DNA of 64,000 nucleotides from Candidatus Binatus sp. (GCF_049584895.1 NZ_JBAUYR010000086.1:69625-133624), one strand, 5' to 3'. Counted from the stretch's first letter, positions 1,231 to 22,957 are shown. The notes: generated by a model from the letters alone, not told the origin. Program-made: numbers and translations.

Positions 1231-2082
1231 ATGAAAATTGGACTGCTCACTCCATTCACCGGCAAGAATGCTCATCCTGCGGAATTTGCGCGTGTCGCTG
1301 AGTCACTCGGATTCGAATCGATCTGGGTGCCCGAGCATCCCGCGATGCCCGCAAATCCCAAGCAGCAGTTTCCCACCGGCGGTCCGATTCCGCCCGCATA
1401 TTTCACGATGGGCGATCAGATGATAGCGCTCAGCATGGCGGCTGCCGTCACCAAGAATCTGAAACTCGCCAGCGGTATCTGCCTCGTGCCGGAGCATGAG
1501 CCGCTCACTCTCGCCAAACAGTTCGCGACGCTGGACGCATACTCGGGCGGCCGCGTGCTGTTCGGAATCGGCGCGGGATGGCTGCGCGAGGAGAGCGATC
1601 TTTTCGGCGTCGACTTCCCCCATCGATGGAGCGAGACTGCCGAGATTGTCGCCGCCATGCGCAAGCTGTGGACCGAGGACTCGGCGTCGTTCGAAGGCAA
1701 GTACGTGAAGTTTCCGCCGGTGAAGTCGCTGCCTAAGCCGGCGCAAAAATCAGGACCGCCGGTGCTGATCGGCAGCCTCGACAAGAACGCCCTCAAGCGC
1801 GTTGCCAAGTGGGCCGACGGATGGTGCCCGATTCAACTCAACGCGGGGCAGTTGAAAACACGTGTCGACGAGCTCAAGCGCGAGTGCACGGCGGTCGGCA
1901 GGAATTTCGCAGAGCTCGATATTACGATCATGGGCGGAATCCGCGGCGACCGCACGACGGTGCAGGATGGTCTGAAGGAGTTCGCGGAAGCAGGCGCGGG
2001 TCGATTCGTCGCTGGCCTGGGAGATCTGACTTTCGAGAATTCCGAAGGGATGCTGAAGAAGATCGCCGCGCTGTACGTTTAG
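1231..2082 (+). CDS. LLM-class (luciferase-like) F420/flavin-dependent oxidoreductase
   Basis: MKIGLLTPFTG...GFESIWVPEHP...FGIGAGW is typical of luciferase-like monooxygenases. The ATG at 1231 is preceded by GAGGAG. The upstream TTG at 1198 abuts the repeat, so it was not used. Confidence 0.85.
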   Translation: MKIGLLTPFTGKNAHPAEFARVAESLGFESIWVPEHPAMPANPKQQFPTGGPIPPAYFTMGDQMIALSMAAAVTKNLKLASGICLVPEHEPLTLAKQFATLDAYSGGRVLFGIGAGWLREESDLFGVDFPHRWSETAEIVAAMRKLWTEDSASFEGKYVKFPPVKSLPKPAQKSGPPVLIGSLDKNALKRVAKWADGWCPIQLNAGQLKTRVDELKRECTAVGRNFAELDITIMGGIRGDRTTVQDGLKEFAEAGAGRFVAGLGDLTFENSEGMLKKIAALYV

Positions 2083-2106
2083 GGAAGGGCGAATGACCCT
2101 TTTTCC

Positions 2107-2218
2107 GTCATCCTGAGCGAAGCGGAGGATCTCGCGCGCCAGCGCGTTCGTGGGCAGTGGCGCCGACGCCGGAGCGTCGTCGAGATTCTTCGCTACGGCA
2201 GCCTCCGCTCAGAATGAC
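2107..2218. repeat. inverted pair of the GTCATYCTGAGCG repeat (MITE/REP-like unit)
   Basis: Arm gtcatcctgagcgaagcggaggatctcg (2107-2134) faces its reverse complement cgagattcttcgctacggcagcctccgctcagaatgac (2181-2218). Confidence 0.8.
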
Positions 2219-2254
2219 AACGATGAACTGATCAGCGCGTAGATGGCTTCGCGC

Positions 2255-2494
2255 TCAAATCTCGTCGCGGATTATTCTTGTCGCTATTACCAGCGCGGTG
2301 GCGCCGGCCGTGGACATCAGGATGGCGCCAATGAAGTTGTGCGCGCGTACGCCCAGGACCTCGAAGATCATTCCGCCGACGATGCCGCCGAGCAGGCCGA
2401 GCCCGATGTCGCACATCATGCCGTAGCCGTTGCCGTTGAGAATTTTTCCCGCCAGCCATCCCGAGATGAGTCCGATTAGAATCCATGCGAACAT
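2255..2494 (-). CDS. GlsB/YeaQ/YmgE family transglycosylase-associated small membrane protein
   Basis: 79 aa, Gly-rich transmembrane pattern ILIGLISGWLAGKI...GLLGGIVGG. Confidence 0.85.
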   Translation of the reverse strand: MFAWILIGLISGWLAGKILNGNGYGMMCDIGLGLLGGIVGGMIFEVLGVRAHNFIGAILMSTAGATALVIATRIIRDEI

Positions 2495-2676
2495 GATTCG
2501 CCTGCCTCCCTGTTTGTTGTGCGTTCGCTAGAGAGGGGAGCAAGAGCGCTGCCATCGGGATCCAGAGGATTTGCGAGTGATTTGGTCTAAATCGGACGGC
2601 TGCGATGCCGCTTTTCGACTGCACCGCCATCTTGCGACTGCGGGTGGGTTGCGAGGCAATCCGCTTTAGCTGACAC

Positions 2677-3966: not shown

Positions 3967-4626
3967 ATGGGCGTGTCGCACATAAAAGTGGGTGTGGCGG
4001 AGCCGCGCACCGGATCGCAGGACTCGCGCGACGAGATTCTGAAGGCGGCGATGCGCCTTTTTGCCAGCCGCGGATTCCATGAGACCTCGATGTCGGAAGT
4101 GGCGCGCGAGGCGCACGTCAGCAAGGCGCTGATTTTTTGGCATTTCAAGACCAAGGAAGAGCTGTTCGTCGCAGTTTTGAACCGCCTGCTCGAACCGTAC
4201 TTTATCGATTTCGCGGAAGAAGCGGCCGCGATGGACGAGCGCCAACAGATTCTAAAGCTGGTTGAGGCGTACCTGTCGTTCGTGCGCGACAACGCGAGTT
4301 CGGTGCGGTTCTTCCTGGCGCAGATGCTTCACGATCCGACGCTGTCCGAAGGTCTCAATGAGCAGGTACTGCAGCTCTATAGCGGCTATCGCGCGATGTT
4401 GGTCGAGCTGATCACGAGCGCGCAACAGAAGGGAGTCTGCGCGCGCCGGACTGCCCCGGAATCGGCGGCGGCGTTTCTGCTTTCGGCGCTGAACGGGTTG
4501 CTGATCGAACATTTATTTATGGGCGCAAATGCGATCGACCCCGAAGGGGCGGTGGCGATGGTGGGCGAGTGGTTGTTCGGTCCGTCGGGGACATCTTCAT
4601 CGGAGGGCGGTGCACCGTCCGCCTGA
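3967..4626 (+). CDS. TetR/AcrR family transcriptional regulator
   Basis: HTH signature ILKAAMRLFASRGFHETSMSEVAREAHVSKALIFWHFKTKEELF. ATG 3967 was chosen over GTG 3919. Confidence 0.85.
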   Translation: MGVSHIKVGVAEPRTGSQDSRDEILKAAMRLFASRGFHETSMSEVAREAHVSKALIFWHFKTKEELFVAVLNRLLEPYFIDFAEEAAAMDERQQILKLVEAYLSFVRDNASSVRFFLAQMLHDPTLSEGLNEQVLQLYSGYRAMLVELITSAQQKGVCARRTAPESAAAFLLSALNGLLIEHLFMGANAIDPEGAVAMVGEWLFGPSGTSSSEGGAPSA

Positions 4627-4665
4627 CTGTTTTCTTCAACATGGTTCCAGGAGAACGCAAAAGCT

Positions 4666-5670
4666 ATGCGCATTCCATTGAGGCAGATGATCGATCTCGG
4701 CCGCTACATGCGCGCCAAGAAGAAATCCGGTGAGAAATATTTTCCACTGGTGCTGATGCTCGAACCGCTCCATGCGTGCAACCTTGCGTGCATCGGATGC
4801 GGGCGAATCGTCGAGTACAAGGACACCATCCGCGACATGATGCCGCTGGACGAGGCGTTGCATTCGGCGGAAGAAGCGGGCGCGCCGATCGTGTCGATCT
4901 GCGGTGGCGAGCCGCTGATGTACAAGCATATCGCGGCGCTGACGCGCGGACTGATCGAGGATCAGAAGCGTCACGTGATGATATGCACCAATGCGATCCT
5001 GCTCGAACGTTTCGTCAAGCAGGTGCCGCCGAGTCCCTATCTCAGCTTCAACCTGCACCTCGACGGGATGCGCGAGACTAACGATCGGGTGACCGACAGG
5101 GTCGGGCATTTCGACATCGTCGTGAAGATGATCAAGATGCTGAAGGAGAAGGGCTACCGCGTACAGACCAACACGACTGTCTTTCGCGAGACCACCGGTC
5201 AGGAGCTCGAGGACATGGTCAAGTACCTGACCAGCCTCGGCGTCGACGGGATGCTGCTGAGCCCCGGCTATCACTACCAGGTGCTGCAGAACGACGAGGA
5301 GTATCTCCGCAAAGACGAGATGCCCGCGAAGTTTTTCAAGGTTCGCGACATGGCGAACGATTACAAGATTATCAACACGCCGATTTACCTCGACTACCTG
5401 GTCGGCAAGCGCGACATGCAATGCAGTCCGTGGACCACGGTCACGCGCAATCCGCAAGGATGGAAGGGGCCGTGCTACCTCATCACAAACGGTCACTATA
5501 AGACCCTTAATGAGATGCATGCGGCGACGGATTGGGAATACTATCGAACCAAGCAGGATTTCCGCTGTCGCGATTGCAAGCTGCATTCGGGATTTGAGGG
5601 GACCGTGGCGCTCGACTTCGGCAAAAATCTGAAGGACTCATGGCGCATGGTGCGGCATTACGTGGCGTGA
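4666..5670 (+). CDS. hpnH: adenosyl-hopene transferase HpnH (radical SAM)
   Basis: CxxxCxxC (CNLACIGC) sits near the N-terminus. Length and hopanoid cluster context fit. The C-terminal CRDCKLHSGFE region is typical of HpnH. Confidence 0.88.
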   Translation: MRIPLRQMIDLGRYMRAKKKSGEKYFPLVLMLEPLHACNLACIGCGRIVEYKDTIRDMMPLDEALHSAEEAGAPIVSICGGEPLMYKHIAALTRGLIEDQKRHVMICTNAILLERFVKQVPPSPYLSFNLHLDGMRETNDRVTDRVGHFDIVVKMIKMLKEKGYRVQTNTTVFRETTGQELEDMVKYLTSLGVDGMLLSPGYHYQVLQNDEEYLRKDEMPAKFFKVRDMANDYKIINTPIYLDYLVGKRDMQCSPWTTVTRNPQGWKGPCYLITNGHYKTLNEMHAATDWEYYRTKQDFRCRDCKLHSGFEGTVALDFGKNLKDSWRMVRHYVA

Positions 5671-16806: not shown

Positions 16807-17632
16807 CATCCGGAGCCTGACCTTCGTACGCGATCGCCGTGAGTGCGTCGGCGATTGCGGCGGTCGCGCGCGAGAGGTTTCGAATCATCTTCGGCAACTT
16901 GAGCATCGTCGCCGGATTGCGGATTAGGTACGACGTCGCCGCGAGCGGCCGCACGTTGCCGTCCGCGTCCGCCATCTCTGCTCCCACGACATCGTCGTCA
17001 ACTTCGTCGAGCACTGCGCGAATCGCAACGAAAGGCAGTCCGCGCGCGGCCGCTTCTGCAGCTATCGCGGCGGTTTCCATGTCCACCGCAATCGCGCCGG
17101 TGCTTTCTTTCGCACGCCGCTTCTCAACGCCGCTCGCGAGCACGCGATGCGAAGTCAAAATCGCTCCGGTTGAGTATGCGATACCCACCTTCGCTAGCGA
17201 ACGGCCGGCCGCGCGCAGATGCGAGTCGCTGACAGCGATCACTCGTTCGGCCACCTGTCCATCGCCATCAATAGTCATTACGCGGTCGGAAAGGATGAGG
17301 TCACCCGGCTTCAGCCCGCTCGACAGCGCCCCAACGACGCCGGTCCCGATTACCAATTCGGCGCCAGGTATCGAGTCAAAGGCTCTGCGCGCCGTTTCGG
17401 TTGCGCGACGATGCCCGATTCCGTGGCCGATAACCGCAAACTCCTTGCCGCCGATCTCCGCGCGGAAGCCATGCAAGCCATCGAGCGCGAGCGGAGTACG
17501 CTTGACCTGCCGGCGCTTGAAAGGCGCAATCTCGCGCGAGAAGGCGTAGAAGAGAAGAATCAACCCTGTAATCTCATTAGCATTGCGAAATGACGCTTGA
17601 GTAGGCCGTTCGATACTAGCAAAATCGAGCAC
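16760..17632 (-). CDS. hpnG: hopanoid-associated phosphorylase/nucleosidase HpnG (PNP_UDP_1 family)
   Basis: Nucleoside phosphorylase-type motifs (VIGTGVVGAL, AVDMETAAIA) and hopanoid context. It overlaps the SDR 3' end convergently by 47 nt. Confidence 0.72.
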   Translation of the reverse strand: MLDFASIERPTQASFRNANEITGLILLFYAFSREIAPFKRRQVKRTPLALDGLHGFRAEIGGKEFAVIGHGIGHRRATETARRAFDSIPGAELVIGTGVVGALSSGLKPGDLILSDRVMTIDGDGQVAERVIAVSDSHLRAAGRSLAKVGIAYSTGAILTSHRVLASGVEKRRAKESTGAIAVDMETAAIAAEAAARGLPFVAIRAVLDEVDDDVVGAEMADADGNVRPLAATSYLIRNPATMLKLPKMIRNLSRATAAIADALTAIAYEGQAPDATKRDRDSVARKHPR

Positions 17633-19208: not shown

Positions 19209-21788
19209 ATGAGCGATCAGGATGGAGCTCCCTTCGCCGATACTTCGCAGGACTATCGCCTGCCGAAAACCGTCACGCCCAGGCGCTACGACATTCGGCT
19301 GACGCCCGACCTCAAGGCCTTCACGTTTCAAGGCGACCTGAGTGTCGCCGTCGCCGTCAACGAAGCGACCGATGACGTCGTGCTGAACGCGCTCGAGCTG
19401 GAGATCGACAAGGTGACTGCAGAACGCGGTGGAAAATCTCTCGCGGCGAAGGTCGAGATGGAACCGGCCAAGGAACGCGCGCACCTTCGATTCGCCGAGA
19501 AACTTTCGCCGGGCGAGTGGACGCTGAAGATTGCGTTTCGCGGAATCCTGAATGACAAGCTGCACGGATTTTATCGCAGCCAGTACCAGGACGCGTCGGG
19601 GAAGACTCATGTCGCCGCGACGACGCAGTTCGAATCCACCGACGCGCGCCGCGCGTTTCCATGCTGGGACGAGCCGGAGCTGAAGGCGAGTTACAAGGTG
19701 ACGCTGGTCGTCGACGAAAACCTTGCGGCAATTTCGAATGGCGGGCAGGAGAGCGAGCGCAAGCTGCCCGGCGGCAAGAAGGAGGTGGTCTTCAAGGAGA
19801 CGATCCGGATGTCCACCTACCTGGTCGCATTCATTGTCGGCGAGTTCGACGCGACTGCGCCGGTTGATGCGGGCACGCCGCTGCGTATCGTTCACGTCCC
19901 CGGCAAGGAGTCCCTGACCGGATGGGCGAAGCAGATTGGCGCATTTTCGCTTAAATACTTTGCGGACTACTACGGGCTCAAGTATCCCGGCGACAAGCTC
20001 GATCTGATCGCGATTCCCGACTTCGCGTCGGGCGCGATGGAAAATCTTGGAGCGATAACGTTTCGCGAGACCGCGCTGCTGGCCGATGAGAAGACCGCGT
20101 CGCGCGCCGAGCTCGAGCGCGTCGCCGACGTGGTCTCGCACGAAAACGCGCACATGTGGTTCGGCGACCTCGTCACGATGCGCTGGTGGAACGGCATCTG
20201 GCTCAACGAGGCGTTTGCGACCTTCATGGAAATGCTGGCGGTCGACGCCTGGAAGCCGGAGTGGAAGCGATGGGAGAGCTTCAGCGTCTCGCGCGCGGCG
20301 GCGATGTCGATCGACGGGCTGCGCAGTACGCGCCCGATCGAGTACGAGGTGCGCAGTCCCGAGGATTGCCGCGCGATGTTCGACATCCTGACCTATGAGA
20401 AGGGTGCGGCGGTGCTGCGGATGCTCGAGCAGTTTTTGAGCGACAAGGTTTTTCGCGACGGAATCCGCCTCTACCTGAAGAAGCATCAATTCAATAACAC
20501 CGAGACCGGCGATTTGTGGGACGCGCTCGAAGCGGCGTCGCGCGAGCCTGTGCGCAAGTTGATGGACTCGTGGATCTTCCAGCCCGGTTTCCCGATGATC
20601 GACGCGTCGCCGGCTGCCGGCGGACTCAAGATTTCGCAGCGGCGCTTCTTCTATCTCCCCGAAGACAACGACCAGCTTTGGCATGTGCCCGTGATGGTTC
20701 GCGCCAAGACCGATAAGGGCGTTTCGACGCACAAAGTTTTGCTGACCACTCGAGAGACGACGATCGATATTCCCGGCAAGCTCGAGTGGGCGCTACTCAA
20801 CGAGGGCGGCCACGGCTTCTATCGCGTGCATTACGCGCCGGAATTGCTCGCGTCGCTCACGAAAAATCTCAGCGCGCTTCAGCCGATCGAACGCTTCGGG
20901 CTGGTGAGCGATACCTGGGTCTCGACCGTCGCTGGGATCGGCCCGCTGAGCGAGTTCCTCAAGATGGCGCGGCTGTTCACCAATGAGACCGACATCAACG
21001 TGTGGCGCGCGCTGATTGGCGCGTTCTCGTATCTCGATATGATAGCGTCTGACGCCGACCGGCCCGCACTCGCCGCAGCCGTGCGCGAGATTGTCGGTCC
21101 GGCAGCCGCACGTCTCGGCTGGGAGCCAAAACCGGGCGAGAGCGAGCTCATCCGCCAGTTGCGCGGCACGCTAATCGGCGCGCTCGGCACGCTCGGCGAC
21201 GATCGCGAAGTGCAAAAGCGCGCGCAGGATCTGTACGCCCGCTTCGAGGACAATCCCGAGTCCGCGGATCGCGACCTGATGCCCGCGCTGGTGAACATCC
21301 TCGCGTACTCGGGCGACGCCAGGCGTTACGAGGAGTTCAAGCGAAAGTTCAAGGCGCCGCGCACGCCGCAGGAAGAGCAGCGCTACCTGTTTGCGCTCGC
21401 AAATTTCCGCGATCGCGAGCTGCTCAGAAAAACTATGGAGATGACGATCGACGGTGAGGTGCGGACGCAGAACGCGCCGTACCTGATGCATTCGCTGCTG
21501 CTCAATCCCGCGTCGCGCTACGAGGCGTGGGACTTTGCGCGCGCGCATTGGGACGAGATGATTCAAAAATATCCCGACAACGCGCTGCCGCGAATGTGCG
21601 AGGCGGTCGTCGCGCTGCTCGATCGCGAGGACGAGGTGAAGAAATTCTTCGCCGAGCATCGGGTGCGCCTCGGCGGCAAGATAATCGATCAGCACCTCGA
21701 GCGGCTGAGCGTCGCGGTCGGATTCAGGAATCGCGAAGGAAAAAATCTGCAGGCAACACTGAAAGGACTAACAGGGGAGAAGCGATGA
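19209..21788 (+). CDS. pepN: M1 family zinc aminopeptidase (aminopeptidase N-like)
   Basis: GAMEN exopeptidase motif (SGAMENLG), HENAH-x18-E zinc site (HENAHMWFGDLVTMRWWNGIWLNEAF), and a long ERAP1-like C-terminal domain. Confidence 0.9.
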   Translation: MSDQDGAPFADTSQDYRLPKTVTPRRYDIRLTPDLKAFTFQGDLSVAVAVNEATDDVVLNALELEIDKVTAERGGKSLAAKVEMEPAKERAHLRFAEKLSPGEWTLKIAFRGILNDKLHGFYRSQYQDASGKTHVAATTQFESTDARRAFPCWDEPELKASYKVTLVVDENLAAISNGGQESERKLPGGKKEVVFKETIRMSTYLVAFIVGEFDATAPVDAGTPLRIVHVPGKESLTGWAKQIGAFSLKYFADYYGLKYPGDKLDLIAIPDFASGAMENLGAITFRETALLADEKTASRAELERVADVVSHENAHMWFGDLVTMRWWNGIWLNEAFATFMEMLAVDAWKPEWKRWESFSVSRAAAMSIDGLRSTRPIEYEVRSPEDCRAMFDILTYEKGAAVLRMLEQFLSDKVFRDGIRLYLKKHQFNNTETGDLWDALEAASREPVRKLMDSWIFQPGFPMIDASPAAGGLKISQRRFFYLPEDNDQLWHVPVMVRAKTDKGVSTHKVLLTTRETTIDIPGKLEWALLNEGGHGFYRVHYAPELLASLTKNLSALQPIERFGLVSDTWVSTVAGIGPLSEFLKMARLFTNETDINVWRALIGAFSYLDMIASDADRPALAAAVREIVGPAAARLGWEPKPGESELIRQLRGTLIGALGTLGDDREVQKRAQDLYARFEDNPESADRDLMPALVNILAYSGDARRYEEFKRKFKAPRTPQEEQRYLFALANFRDRELLRKTMEMTIDGEVRTQNAPYLMHSLLLNPASRYEAWDFARAHWDEMIQKYPDNALPRMCEAVVALLDREDEVKKFFAEHRVRLGGKIIDQHLERLSVAVGFRNREGKNLQATLKGLTGEKR

Positions 21789-22957
21789 CGGACCAATCGA
21801 AAGCAGCTGCCGCAACGATCATCCACGACGACCAGCCGTTGCATTTCGAACGCGCGATCGCGGATTCGAATGCGGTGTGGCTCGACGCGGCGGAGTTGAA
21901 AAAGCTTGCGGGATGGGAGCTTAAGCCGGAGGGAATCTGCCGCGGCGATTTGTGCGTGCCGATTCCGCCCGGACGCGAGAGCGAATTCACTTCGAAGCGC
22001 GACGGCGCGTCCTGGCTCAACTTCAGCGCGCTCGCCGACCAGATGGGCAAGCCGTGGGCGGGAGACGCAAAGAATCGCGTGTGGTACTTCGGCGCGGAGG
22101 CGGCAGATCGCGGCAACGCGCTGCGAACGCTCGAGGCTCCCGACTTCGAGCTGCCTGACCTCGACGGCAAACTGCATCGCCTGTCAGACTATCGCGGCCG
22201 GAAAGTCTTTTTACTGGCCTGGGCCTCGTGGTGAGGATGCTCCCTTGACCTGCCCGGGTGGCAGGCGCTGTACGAAGAACTCAAGGACCTCAACTTCACG
22301 ATCGTCACCGTCGCGTTCGACACCGGCGGGGCGGCTGCGGCAGGCCCGTTCATCAAGGCCGGCAATCCAGCGCATCCTTCGCTAATCGATACGCGCCACG
22401 TCGTCGCCGAACTCTACAACATGGTCAACGTGCCGACCGCGGTTTGGATCGATGAATCGGGAACGATCGTTCGGCCTAACGAAGTCGCGTATGCGCTCGA
22501 CACTTTCCGCGCGATCACCGGTATCGATTCGGCACGATACCTCGACGCACTGCGCGATTGGGCGAAGAACGGCGCGAACAGCCGCTACGTCATGAAGCCC
22601 GACGAGGTCAAGCGCAAGCTCAAACTGCCGACCCGCGAGCATGCGCAAGCTGCGGCATACTTCCGGCTCGCCGAATATCTGTGCGAGACCGGGCACGCGC
22701 CTGACGCAGTGCCGTATTTCAAGCAGGCGCGGCAATTGCGTCCCGAGAGCTGGACGATCACGCGGCAGGCGTTCGCGATGGGCGATCCGGAGCGCGACTA
22801 CGGCACCACCTTCGTCAACGAAGTCGCCAATCTGAAAGGCAAGCTCTATTACGACCTGCTTGATCTCGATGGCTCTGGGAGCAATCCGGAGCAGGAGCAG
22901 GTCGCGAAGGAGGGCGCCGAGCGCCTGCGCAAACTGGTCGAGGGTCGCAGCGAATAG
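21785..22957 (+). CDS. thioredoxin-fold (TlpA/ResA-like) redox protein, predicted selenoprotein with Sec at TGA 22232-22234
   Basis: The 21785-22234 and 22235-22957 reading frames are the same frame, joined by one TGA. The context is DFELPDLDGKLHRLSDYRGRKVFLLAWASW-U-GC, followed by the cis-Pro region NVPTAVWIDESG. An ATGA overlap joins it to the pepN stop. Confidence 0.7.
22249..22265 (+). promoter_or_regulatory. putative bacterial SECIS upper stem-loop
   Basis: CCUGCC-CGGGU-GGCAGG: a perfect 6-bp stem and a 5-nt loop containing GGU. It starts 14 nt after the in-frame UGA. Confidence 0.55.

Follow-up and report, generated by a model that had tools for sequence, protein, structure and literature searches.

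A 64,000-nucleotide (nt) stretch of Candidatus Binatus sp. DNA (GCF_049584895.1, NZ_JBAUYR010000086.1:69625-133624), here called the window, carries a gene with an in-frame TGA at the redox center of a thioredoxin-fold protein. A sequence-only reading had predicted that this gene encodes a selenoprotein, with selenocysteine (Sec) at the TGA, and we followed up that prediction computationally. The features of the locus are collected in Table 1. As described earlier, the list of open reading frames (ORFs) cuts the gene in two, at 21527-22234 and 22421-22957, both in the same frame. Translated as one unit, 21785-22957 has a single internal stop, the TGA at codon 150, and the earlier claim that no other stop lies between it and MVNVPT was correct. 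The flanking residues are GRKVFLLAWASW before the TGA and GCSLDLPGWQALYEEL after it, with NVPTAVWIDESG further downstream. Homologs align across the TGA over residues 1-389. The gene directly upstream encodes an 859-residue M1 aminopeptidase, whose TGA stop (21786-21788) overlaps the ATG at 21785; this overlap bears out the proposed ATGA coupling.

Table 1. Features of the predicted selenoprotein locus, in window coordinates (SECIS, selenocysteine insertion sequence; bSECIS, bacterial SECIS; pLDDT, predicted local distance difference test score)
Feature	Position	Strand	Details
Upstream M1 aminopeptidase gene	19209-21788	+	Pfam Peptidase_M1_N, Peptidase_M1, ERAP1_C; ATGA overlap
Shine-Dalgarno-like GGGGAG	21774-21779	+	5 nt 5' of ATG 21785; read from the sequence
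Complete selenoprotein gene (predicted)	21785-22957	+	390 codons including Sec150; stop TAG 22955-22957
N-terminal alpha/beta domain, residues 1 to ~112	21785-22120	+	AlphaFold pLDDT 90.7
C52-x4-C57 pair, motif KPEGxCxxxxCVP	21938-21955	+	Predicted beta-hairpin
Thioredoxin-fold (TlpA/ResA/redoxin-type) domain, residues ~113-236	22121-22492	+	Pfam, PDB profile, Foldseek
UGA codon 150, predicted Sec	22232-22234	+	In the column of the nucleophilic (N-terminal) CxxC Cys
Cys152 (TGC) of U-G-C, invariant, paired with Sec150	22238-22240	+	Alignments A1, A2, A4
Predicted bSECIS hairpin, 6-bp stem CCUGCC/GGCAGG, loop CGGGU	22249-22265	+	-9.3 kcal/mol
N215-V216-P217, cis-Pro loop	22427-22435	+	No variation in A1 or A4; aligned to the xPT loop in structures of Etrx and thioredoxin
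C-terminal all-helical domain, residues ~240-390	22502-22954	+	Helices at 240-350 in the model
Single TPR-like repeat, residues 289-321	22649-22747	+	Pfam TPR_2/TPR_12, weak, sub-threshold

We collected related loci in two ways. A genome scan restricted to one genome per species yielded 80, and a soil-dominated metagenome scan aimed at Cys-forms yielded 77. TGA stood at the Sec column, with the frame continuing, in all 80 genome loci; the metagenome loci had TGA in 75 cases and TGC in the other 2. Together, the two scans gave TGA in 155 of 157 loci, which span at least six phyla. The most similar genome loci (89-96% identical) belong to Binatia-like metagenome-assembled genomes (MAGs) labeled 'uncultured delta proteobacterium'. 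A Candidatus Acidiferrales MAG is 78% identical, and loci at 43-53% identity come from Acidobacteriota, Methylomirabilota, Chloroflexota, Myxococcales and Thermodesulfobacteriota. Among the best 120 database proteins, about 110 are continuous and have Cys at the Sec column (WASWCGC or WASWCxC). Homologs with Cys or Sec aligned at the TGA, which the sequence-only reading had named as a check, were thus found in both forms. Alternation of Sec and Cys at the catalytic column, as seen across these homologs, is the classic selenoprotein pattern.

From the TGA to the next ATG (22421) there are 63 codons, which gene callers treat as non-coding. We counted synonymous and non-synonymous differences over this stretch in six close relatives and obtained 13/0, 12/0, 9/0, 12/1, 11/2 and 20/7, respectively. 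Change in this stretch is nearly all synonymous, and we conclude that it is translated. TGA itself is a normal stop in the window. It ends 31 of the 64 longest ORFs, including that of the gene immediately upstream, and we therefore take the genetic code to be standard.

A perfect hairpin had been reported just past the TGA. We confirmed it: it begins 14 nt beyond the TGA, within codons for D-L-P-G-W-Q-A. The published bSECIS model has a loop of 3-9 nt with a G in its first two positions, a stem of 4-16 bp, a UGA-to-loop distance of 16-37 nt and a minimum free energy of at most -7.5 kcal/mol (PMC13188914). Checked point by point, the 5-nt loop CGGGU, the 6-bp stem, the distance of 20 nt and the energy listed in Table 1 all agree with this model, so that the description of the hairpin as SECIS-like held. 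Rfam, which has no bacterial SECIS family, returned nothing at 22180-22340.

Pairing in the stem is conserved among relatives. Across 139 distinct Sec-form sequences, 94.2% of the cells were paired, with compensatory pairs at 24-40 (CG in 103, UA in 27) and at 25-39 (CG in 112, UA in 23). None of 500 shuffles reached the observed hairpin score, and slid controls were 25-61% paired. The stem is written in the codon pattern GAY-YUG-CCN-NNN-UGG-CAR-N, that is, D-L-P-x-W-Q-x, and the peptide therefore partly dictates the stem. We examined codon choice in the window and the 80 genome loci, which gave 77 distinct sequences. The Leu codon was solely CTG or TTG, matched with Gln CAG or CAA (63 and 14 of the 77, with no mixed cases), while a Leu six codons downstream used CTC, CTT, CTG and CTA freely. 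The third position of the Asp codon covaried with the first base of the next codon even across an amino-acid change; this is the pair found as CG in 103 sequences and UA in 27. No further conserved structure was seen in the 66 nt past the TGA.

Nine Cys-form DNAs were available for comparison; the metagenome scan had given two Cys-forms, and seven single look-ups were added. The hairpin was weaker or lost in six of them, with wobble pairs, mismatches or no hairpin. Median hairpin energy was -10.6 kcal/mol in Sec-forms versus -6.5 kcal/mol in Cys-forms (n = 9; Mann-Whitney p = 0.0014, the sequences being non-independent). The peptide followed suit: DLPxWQ occurs in almost all Sec-forms, with few departures, versus 57 of 112 Cys-forms.

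Individual relatives vary in both the column and the hairpin. TGG (Trp) occupies the Sec column, giving WASWWGC, in P0002 (L170:2566-3726, WNFT01016115.1) and in P0010; the hairpin of SECIS type in L170 is still intact (TTGCCA-GGC-TGGCAA). These variants look like one-step TGA-to-TGG mutants and are perhaps inactive enzymes or consensus artefacts. In one close relative (L007, 89% identity) the frame shifts about 19 codons past the TGA (L007:8448-8640), which reflects either a long-read MAG indel error or a real pseudogene. Three Cys-forms have hairpins 15-35 nt past their TGC or TGT (L164, -12.0; L166, -11.3; L163, -6.8 kcal/mol). L164, with a perfect hairpin, and L163, with a wobble hairpin, are nested within Sec clades, and their hairpins may be relic SECIS elements left by a Sec-to-Cys switch. 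The distant Cys-forms L141 and L157 have lost the hairpin.

Was this family already recognized? With U written as C, the protein scored 337.3 bits (E = 1.2e-100) against the NCBIfam equivalog NF041054 (WAxxUGC_long), whose cut-off is 300. WASW-TGA-GC at 22220-22240 spells the W-A-x-x-U-G-C motif, with U supplied by the in-frame TGA. The long architecture is also present: an N-terminal CX4C, a thioredoxin fold and C-terminal helices, aligned end to end with 38 homologs. The label 'ResA-like WAxxUGC', which the sequence-only reading had brought up, does exist; NF041054 is the 'ResA-like WAxxUGC motif-containing protein', and NCBI named one homolog (P0076) through it. Because the protein passes this curated cut-off, the finding is correct but known. 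A Sargasso Sea survey had one U-x-C Prx-like sequence (PMC1088965), and the Global Ocean Sampling (GOS) survey described 'Prx-like (UGC-containing)' proteins, with 46 Sec sequences and 855 Cys homologs, as commoner in non-marine samples (PMC2398784). The family is thus already known, curated by NCBI under its motif name and present in selenoproteome surveys since 2005-2008. The term 'WAxxUGC' was not found in the literature searched, and the BSepDB text does not mention the family.

The central domain has a clear fold. Pfam AhpC-TSA (60.3 bits; gathering score 26) and Redoxin (49 bits) matched residues 117-230, and PDB profile and fold searches matched residues ~100-236 to 3kcm (thioredoxin family), Etrx1/2 (2yp6, 4hqz), ResA, TlpA and StoA. 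Foldseek to ResA gave an E value of 1.8e-10 and a root-mean-square deviation of 1.6 Å. The thioredoxin domain of a Cys homolog, P0012, superposed on ResA at 1.4-1.6 Å, with a TM-score, normalized to the target, of ~0.77. HMMER aligned WASW-U-G-C with WASWCGPC or WATWCPPC of Etrx1/2, ResA and a Geobacter thioredoxin, leaving a one-residue gap. The alignment thus puts Sec150 at the attacking Cys and Cys152 at the resolving Cys, in agreement with the earlier placement of the TGA at the nucleophilic Cys of TlpA/ResA-type proteins. The Cys152 codon was TGC in 75 of 77 sequences and TGT in 2. In the window protein and its 38 end-to-end homologs, G50, C52, C57, P59, C152, D202, H205 and NVP215-217 are invariant. 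The U-x-C spacing, singled out earlier as unusual next to CxxC, is real, but it is a trait of the whole family, in which C-x-C spacing holds throughout, and not of this gene.

These matches indicate that the protein is built on a ResA-like scaffold. Filing it as a ResA/TlpA ortholog or as a peroxiredoxin was rejected, as CxxC and PxxxTxxC are both absent. The C-x-x-C active site of TlpA/ResA is replaced by U-G-C. The peroxidatic motif, given as P-x-x-x-[TS]-x-x-C(U) in PMC13188914, is absent from FLLAWASW-U, where position -3 is Ala and position -7 is not Pro.

The thioredoxin fold begins near residue 113. The sequence-only reading had described the domain before it as unassignable and ~130 residues long. 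The first part stood, family-wide, with no Pfam match and no PDB fold match at E < 1 (best E = 1.2) for the N-terminal domain; the size did not, the domain being ~110 residues. Used as the query of a full HMMER search, this domain matched 636 representative clusters at E <= 0.001. Among the 149 matches listed, 52 stop precisely at ...WASW, a single one runs on into CxC, and none has a clearly different architecture. G50, C52 and C57 were invariant in sets of 39, 91 and 92 sequences; P59 was invariant in the 39 and at least 90% conserved in the two larger sets. In a model of the window's own N-terminal 115 residues, strands 50-53 and 56-58, which bear C52 and C57, are adjacent. Toward the C terminus, PDB profile searching matched a consensus TPR at positions 284-320. 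For the whole protein we relied on a model of the Cys homolog P0012 in place of the window protein. This model was confident and compact (pLDDT 95.7; predicted template modeling score [pTM] 0.92), suggesting that the three parts form a single packed unit.

No hydrophobic leader was seen in the window protein. It is therefore probably cytoplasmic, and it departs in this respect from the extracytoplasmic TlpA/ResA type. A crude hydropathy test found a signal-peptide-like leader in 57 of 140 Sec-form relatives (~40%; e.g., loci L008-L036), and the family seems to include both exported and cytoplasmic proteins. Among bacterial selenoproteins, export is uncommon.

We conclude with high confidence that 21785-22957 is a genuine Sec-decoding gene, as the sequence-only reading had predicted. 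The Sec/Cys pairing, the conserved TGA, purifying selection downstream of it, the covarying bSECIS hairpin and membership in NF041054 together support this conclusion.

Several observations weigh against it. We searched the window and 168 loci by tblastn with E. coli SelA, SelB and SelD, and the window and 55 loci with ARAGORN for tRNA-Sec. The 64-kb window contained no selA, selB, selD or tRNA-Sec, and the flanks of 55 related loci were without Sec machinery, apart from a selD at L149. We regard the lack of sel genes in the window and flanks as uninformative, not negative. A literature search gave no experimental Se incorporation or activity for any family member. Since the defining CxxC is absent, the chemistry may differ from that of ResA/TlpA. 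As for the hairpin, the window has 1864 TGA triplets, of which 146 (7.8%) precede a hairpin of the same minimal criteria, and the 64-nt local fold has a z of -0.62; the hairpin by itself is therefore weak evidence. Furthermore, the LPxWQ peptide by itself tends to encode the stem, a stable hairpin persists in three of the nine Cys-forms, and the comparisons of Sec-forms with Cys-forms lack phylogenetic independence and include just nine Cys-form DNAs. On our reading of the alignments, the comparison among relatives nevertheless settles the hairpin question, in favor of conservation beyond chance.

Perhaps UGA150 simply ends a 149-residue protein and 22421-22957 is an independent gene? Public gene calls do split the gene, 52 of the 149 best N-domain matches listed stop at ...WASW, and C-terminal fragments (P0004, P0008) have been called as genes of their own. 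However, five close relatives together show 57 synonymous versus 3 non-synonymous differences in the 63 codons between TGA and ATG, and the ~110 Cys-forms are continuous. Moreover, ATG 22421 is part of the conserved YNMVNVPT block, and a start there would leave each of the two products with a broken thioredoxin fold. We consider two separate products exceedingly improbable. The view that the TGA reflects a pseudogene lesion, or else a sequencing or assembly error, could appeal to the errors carried by Nanopore-based MAGs, to the L007 frameshift and to the TGG in L170. This explanation is already effectively refuted by the recurrence of TGA in 155 of 157 independent loci, which represent several phyla and several assemblers, and by a frame that is intact and under selection on either side of it. 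Read-through with a standard residue (Trp, Cys or Arg), by a near-cognate tRNA or a reassigned code, would agree with the lack of Sec machinery in the window and with TGG in P0002/L170 and P0010. It is at odds with the use of TGA to end 31 of the 64 longest ORFs and with the catalytic Cys that homologs carry at this column. It also leaves a covarying hairpin at SECIS distance without a role, and curation places the family among the selenoproteins; we hold such read-through to be very improbable. In sum, TGA conservation, the selected frame and the ordinary use of TGA as a stop elsewhere make the two-gene, pseudogene and reassigned-code readings very unlikely.

A subtler possibility is that Sec is inserted but that the hairpin at 22249-22265 is a by-product of the LPxWQ codons, with the SelB element elsewhere. 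CUG-CCN-NNN-UGG-CAG self-pairs by default, and the base rate of such hairpins and their persistence in a third of the Cys-forms are as this idea would have it. Yet synonymous sites covary, CTG with CAG and TTG with CAA in 77 of 77 sequences, and the Asp third position covaries across an amino-acid change. The Leu codon is never CTC, CTT or CTA, unlike a nearby Leu. The peptide is relaxed in Cys-forms, and the 66 nt past the TGA hold no other conserved structure. A by-product hairpin is thus improbable.

How might the protein work? We infer that one gene yields a three-domain thiol/selenol oxidoreductase of the 'ResA-like WAxxUGC' family. UGA150 would be decoded as Sec, with the hairpin at 22249-22265 acting as a bSECIS that recruits SelB with Sec-tRNA(Sec). 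Sec150 and Cys152, separated by a single Gly, would form a selenenylsulfide U-G-C center, shorter by one residue than CxxC. The CX4C domain at the N terminus and the helical/TPR-like domain at the C terminus could provide an internal redox relay and/or substrate recognition.

Another view has a small chance of being right: not a ResA-like reductase in which Sec has replaced Cys, but an uncharacterized three-domain enzyme in which C52, C57, U150 and C152 form one redox or S/Se relay, with a strained U-G-C of non-CxxC chemistry and a SECIS hard-wired in LPxWQ. By analogy with the [U/C]-G-C-K loop of SelD, such chemistry could be oxidase/isomerase-like or consist of persulfide/perselenide transfer. 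SelD carries this loop, and the SelD proteins of L149 and of E. coli both read GCGCK. As in WASW-U-G-C, the spacing in the loop is one residue. If true, a SECIS within LPxWQ would ease switching between Sec and Cys, and this would fit the state changes on the family tree.

That tree, a rough neighbor-joining one from biased sampling, comprised 242 distinct members (133 Sec, 107 Cys, 2 Trp). Parsimony on it required at least 12 state changes, at least 10 of them between Sec and Cys. Single Cys-forms and the two TGG variants fell inside Sec clades, and a few Sec-forms fell inside Cys clades. Among sampled relatives the Sec form predominates, and members are frequent in soil Acidobacteriota, Binatia-like bacteria, Methylomirabilota and Chloroflexota. 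Binatia-like MAGs can hold two paralogs each, ~50% identical and both with TGA (L001 and L044 in CAVUUH01; L004 and L067 in CAWDTQ01). The only sel gene near any of ~168 loci was on L149, a 1-Mb metagenome contig, where a Cys-type selD with the active loop RCGGCGCKIG sits upstream of a Sec-form member and diverges from it, at 1642-2652 (-) and 4001-5107 (+), respectively.

The M1 aminopeptidase gene precedes the family gene in only 12 of ~157 loci, all close relatives, and is a mere neighbor, not a conserved partner. Clustering of ORFs within 6 kb of the gene at these ~157 loci gave no partner common across phyla, and no cytochrome-maturation or Sco/CoxB genes were found near the selenoprotein gene. 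A scan of the window for coding sequence on both sides of a TGA gave only 22232 and two antisense artefacts, and hence no other selenoprotein gene. A 236-residue ORF at 16839-17549 (+) appears coding-like (GC content at third codon positions, 0.72) and has no Pfam match at E <= 1e-5.

For annotation, the prediction was a correct catch: gene callers cut this gene in two, and its halves abound in public protein collections. The residual interest lies in the U-G-C chemistry, in the CX4C domain and in a SECIS embedded in a conserved peptide.

How does this system compare with known ones? The hairpin resembles the E. coli fdhF-type and consensus bSECIS in lying within the coding region soon after the UGA and in its 5-nt loop with GG at positions 2-3, a likeness known from structure criteria; unlike them, its stem is short and minimal and has no bulged U. 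CGC peptides serve as protein disulfide isomerase mimics. MauE has a CGC active site, a CXC redox motif that places two chalcogens one Gly apart, as does U-G-C (bioRxiv 10.64898/2026.03.05.709764). The folds and contexts of MauE and SelD differ from those of the window protein, and the resemblance is one of motif only. With ResA/TlpA/Etrx (1st9, 1jfu, 4hqs, 2yp6; cd02966) the protein shares the thioredoxin fold, the WxxWC lead-in, the cis-Pro loop and the position of Sec at the attacking Cys. It differs from them in its U-x-C and in its extra N-terminal CX4C and C-terminal helical domains; those proteins are extracytoplasmic, whereas this one has no signal peptide or membrane anchor. The GOS 'Prx-like (UGC)' set is alike in motif and in its mix of Sec and Cys, and may share the long architecture. 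Within NF041054, the window protein is a plain member, with the same WASWUGC motif, the same three-part architecture and the same Sec/Cys mix.

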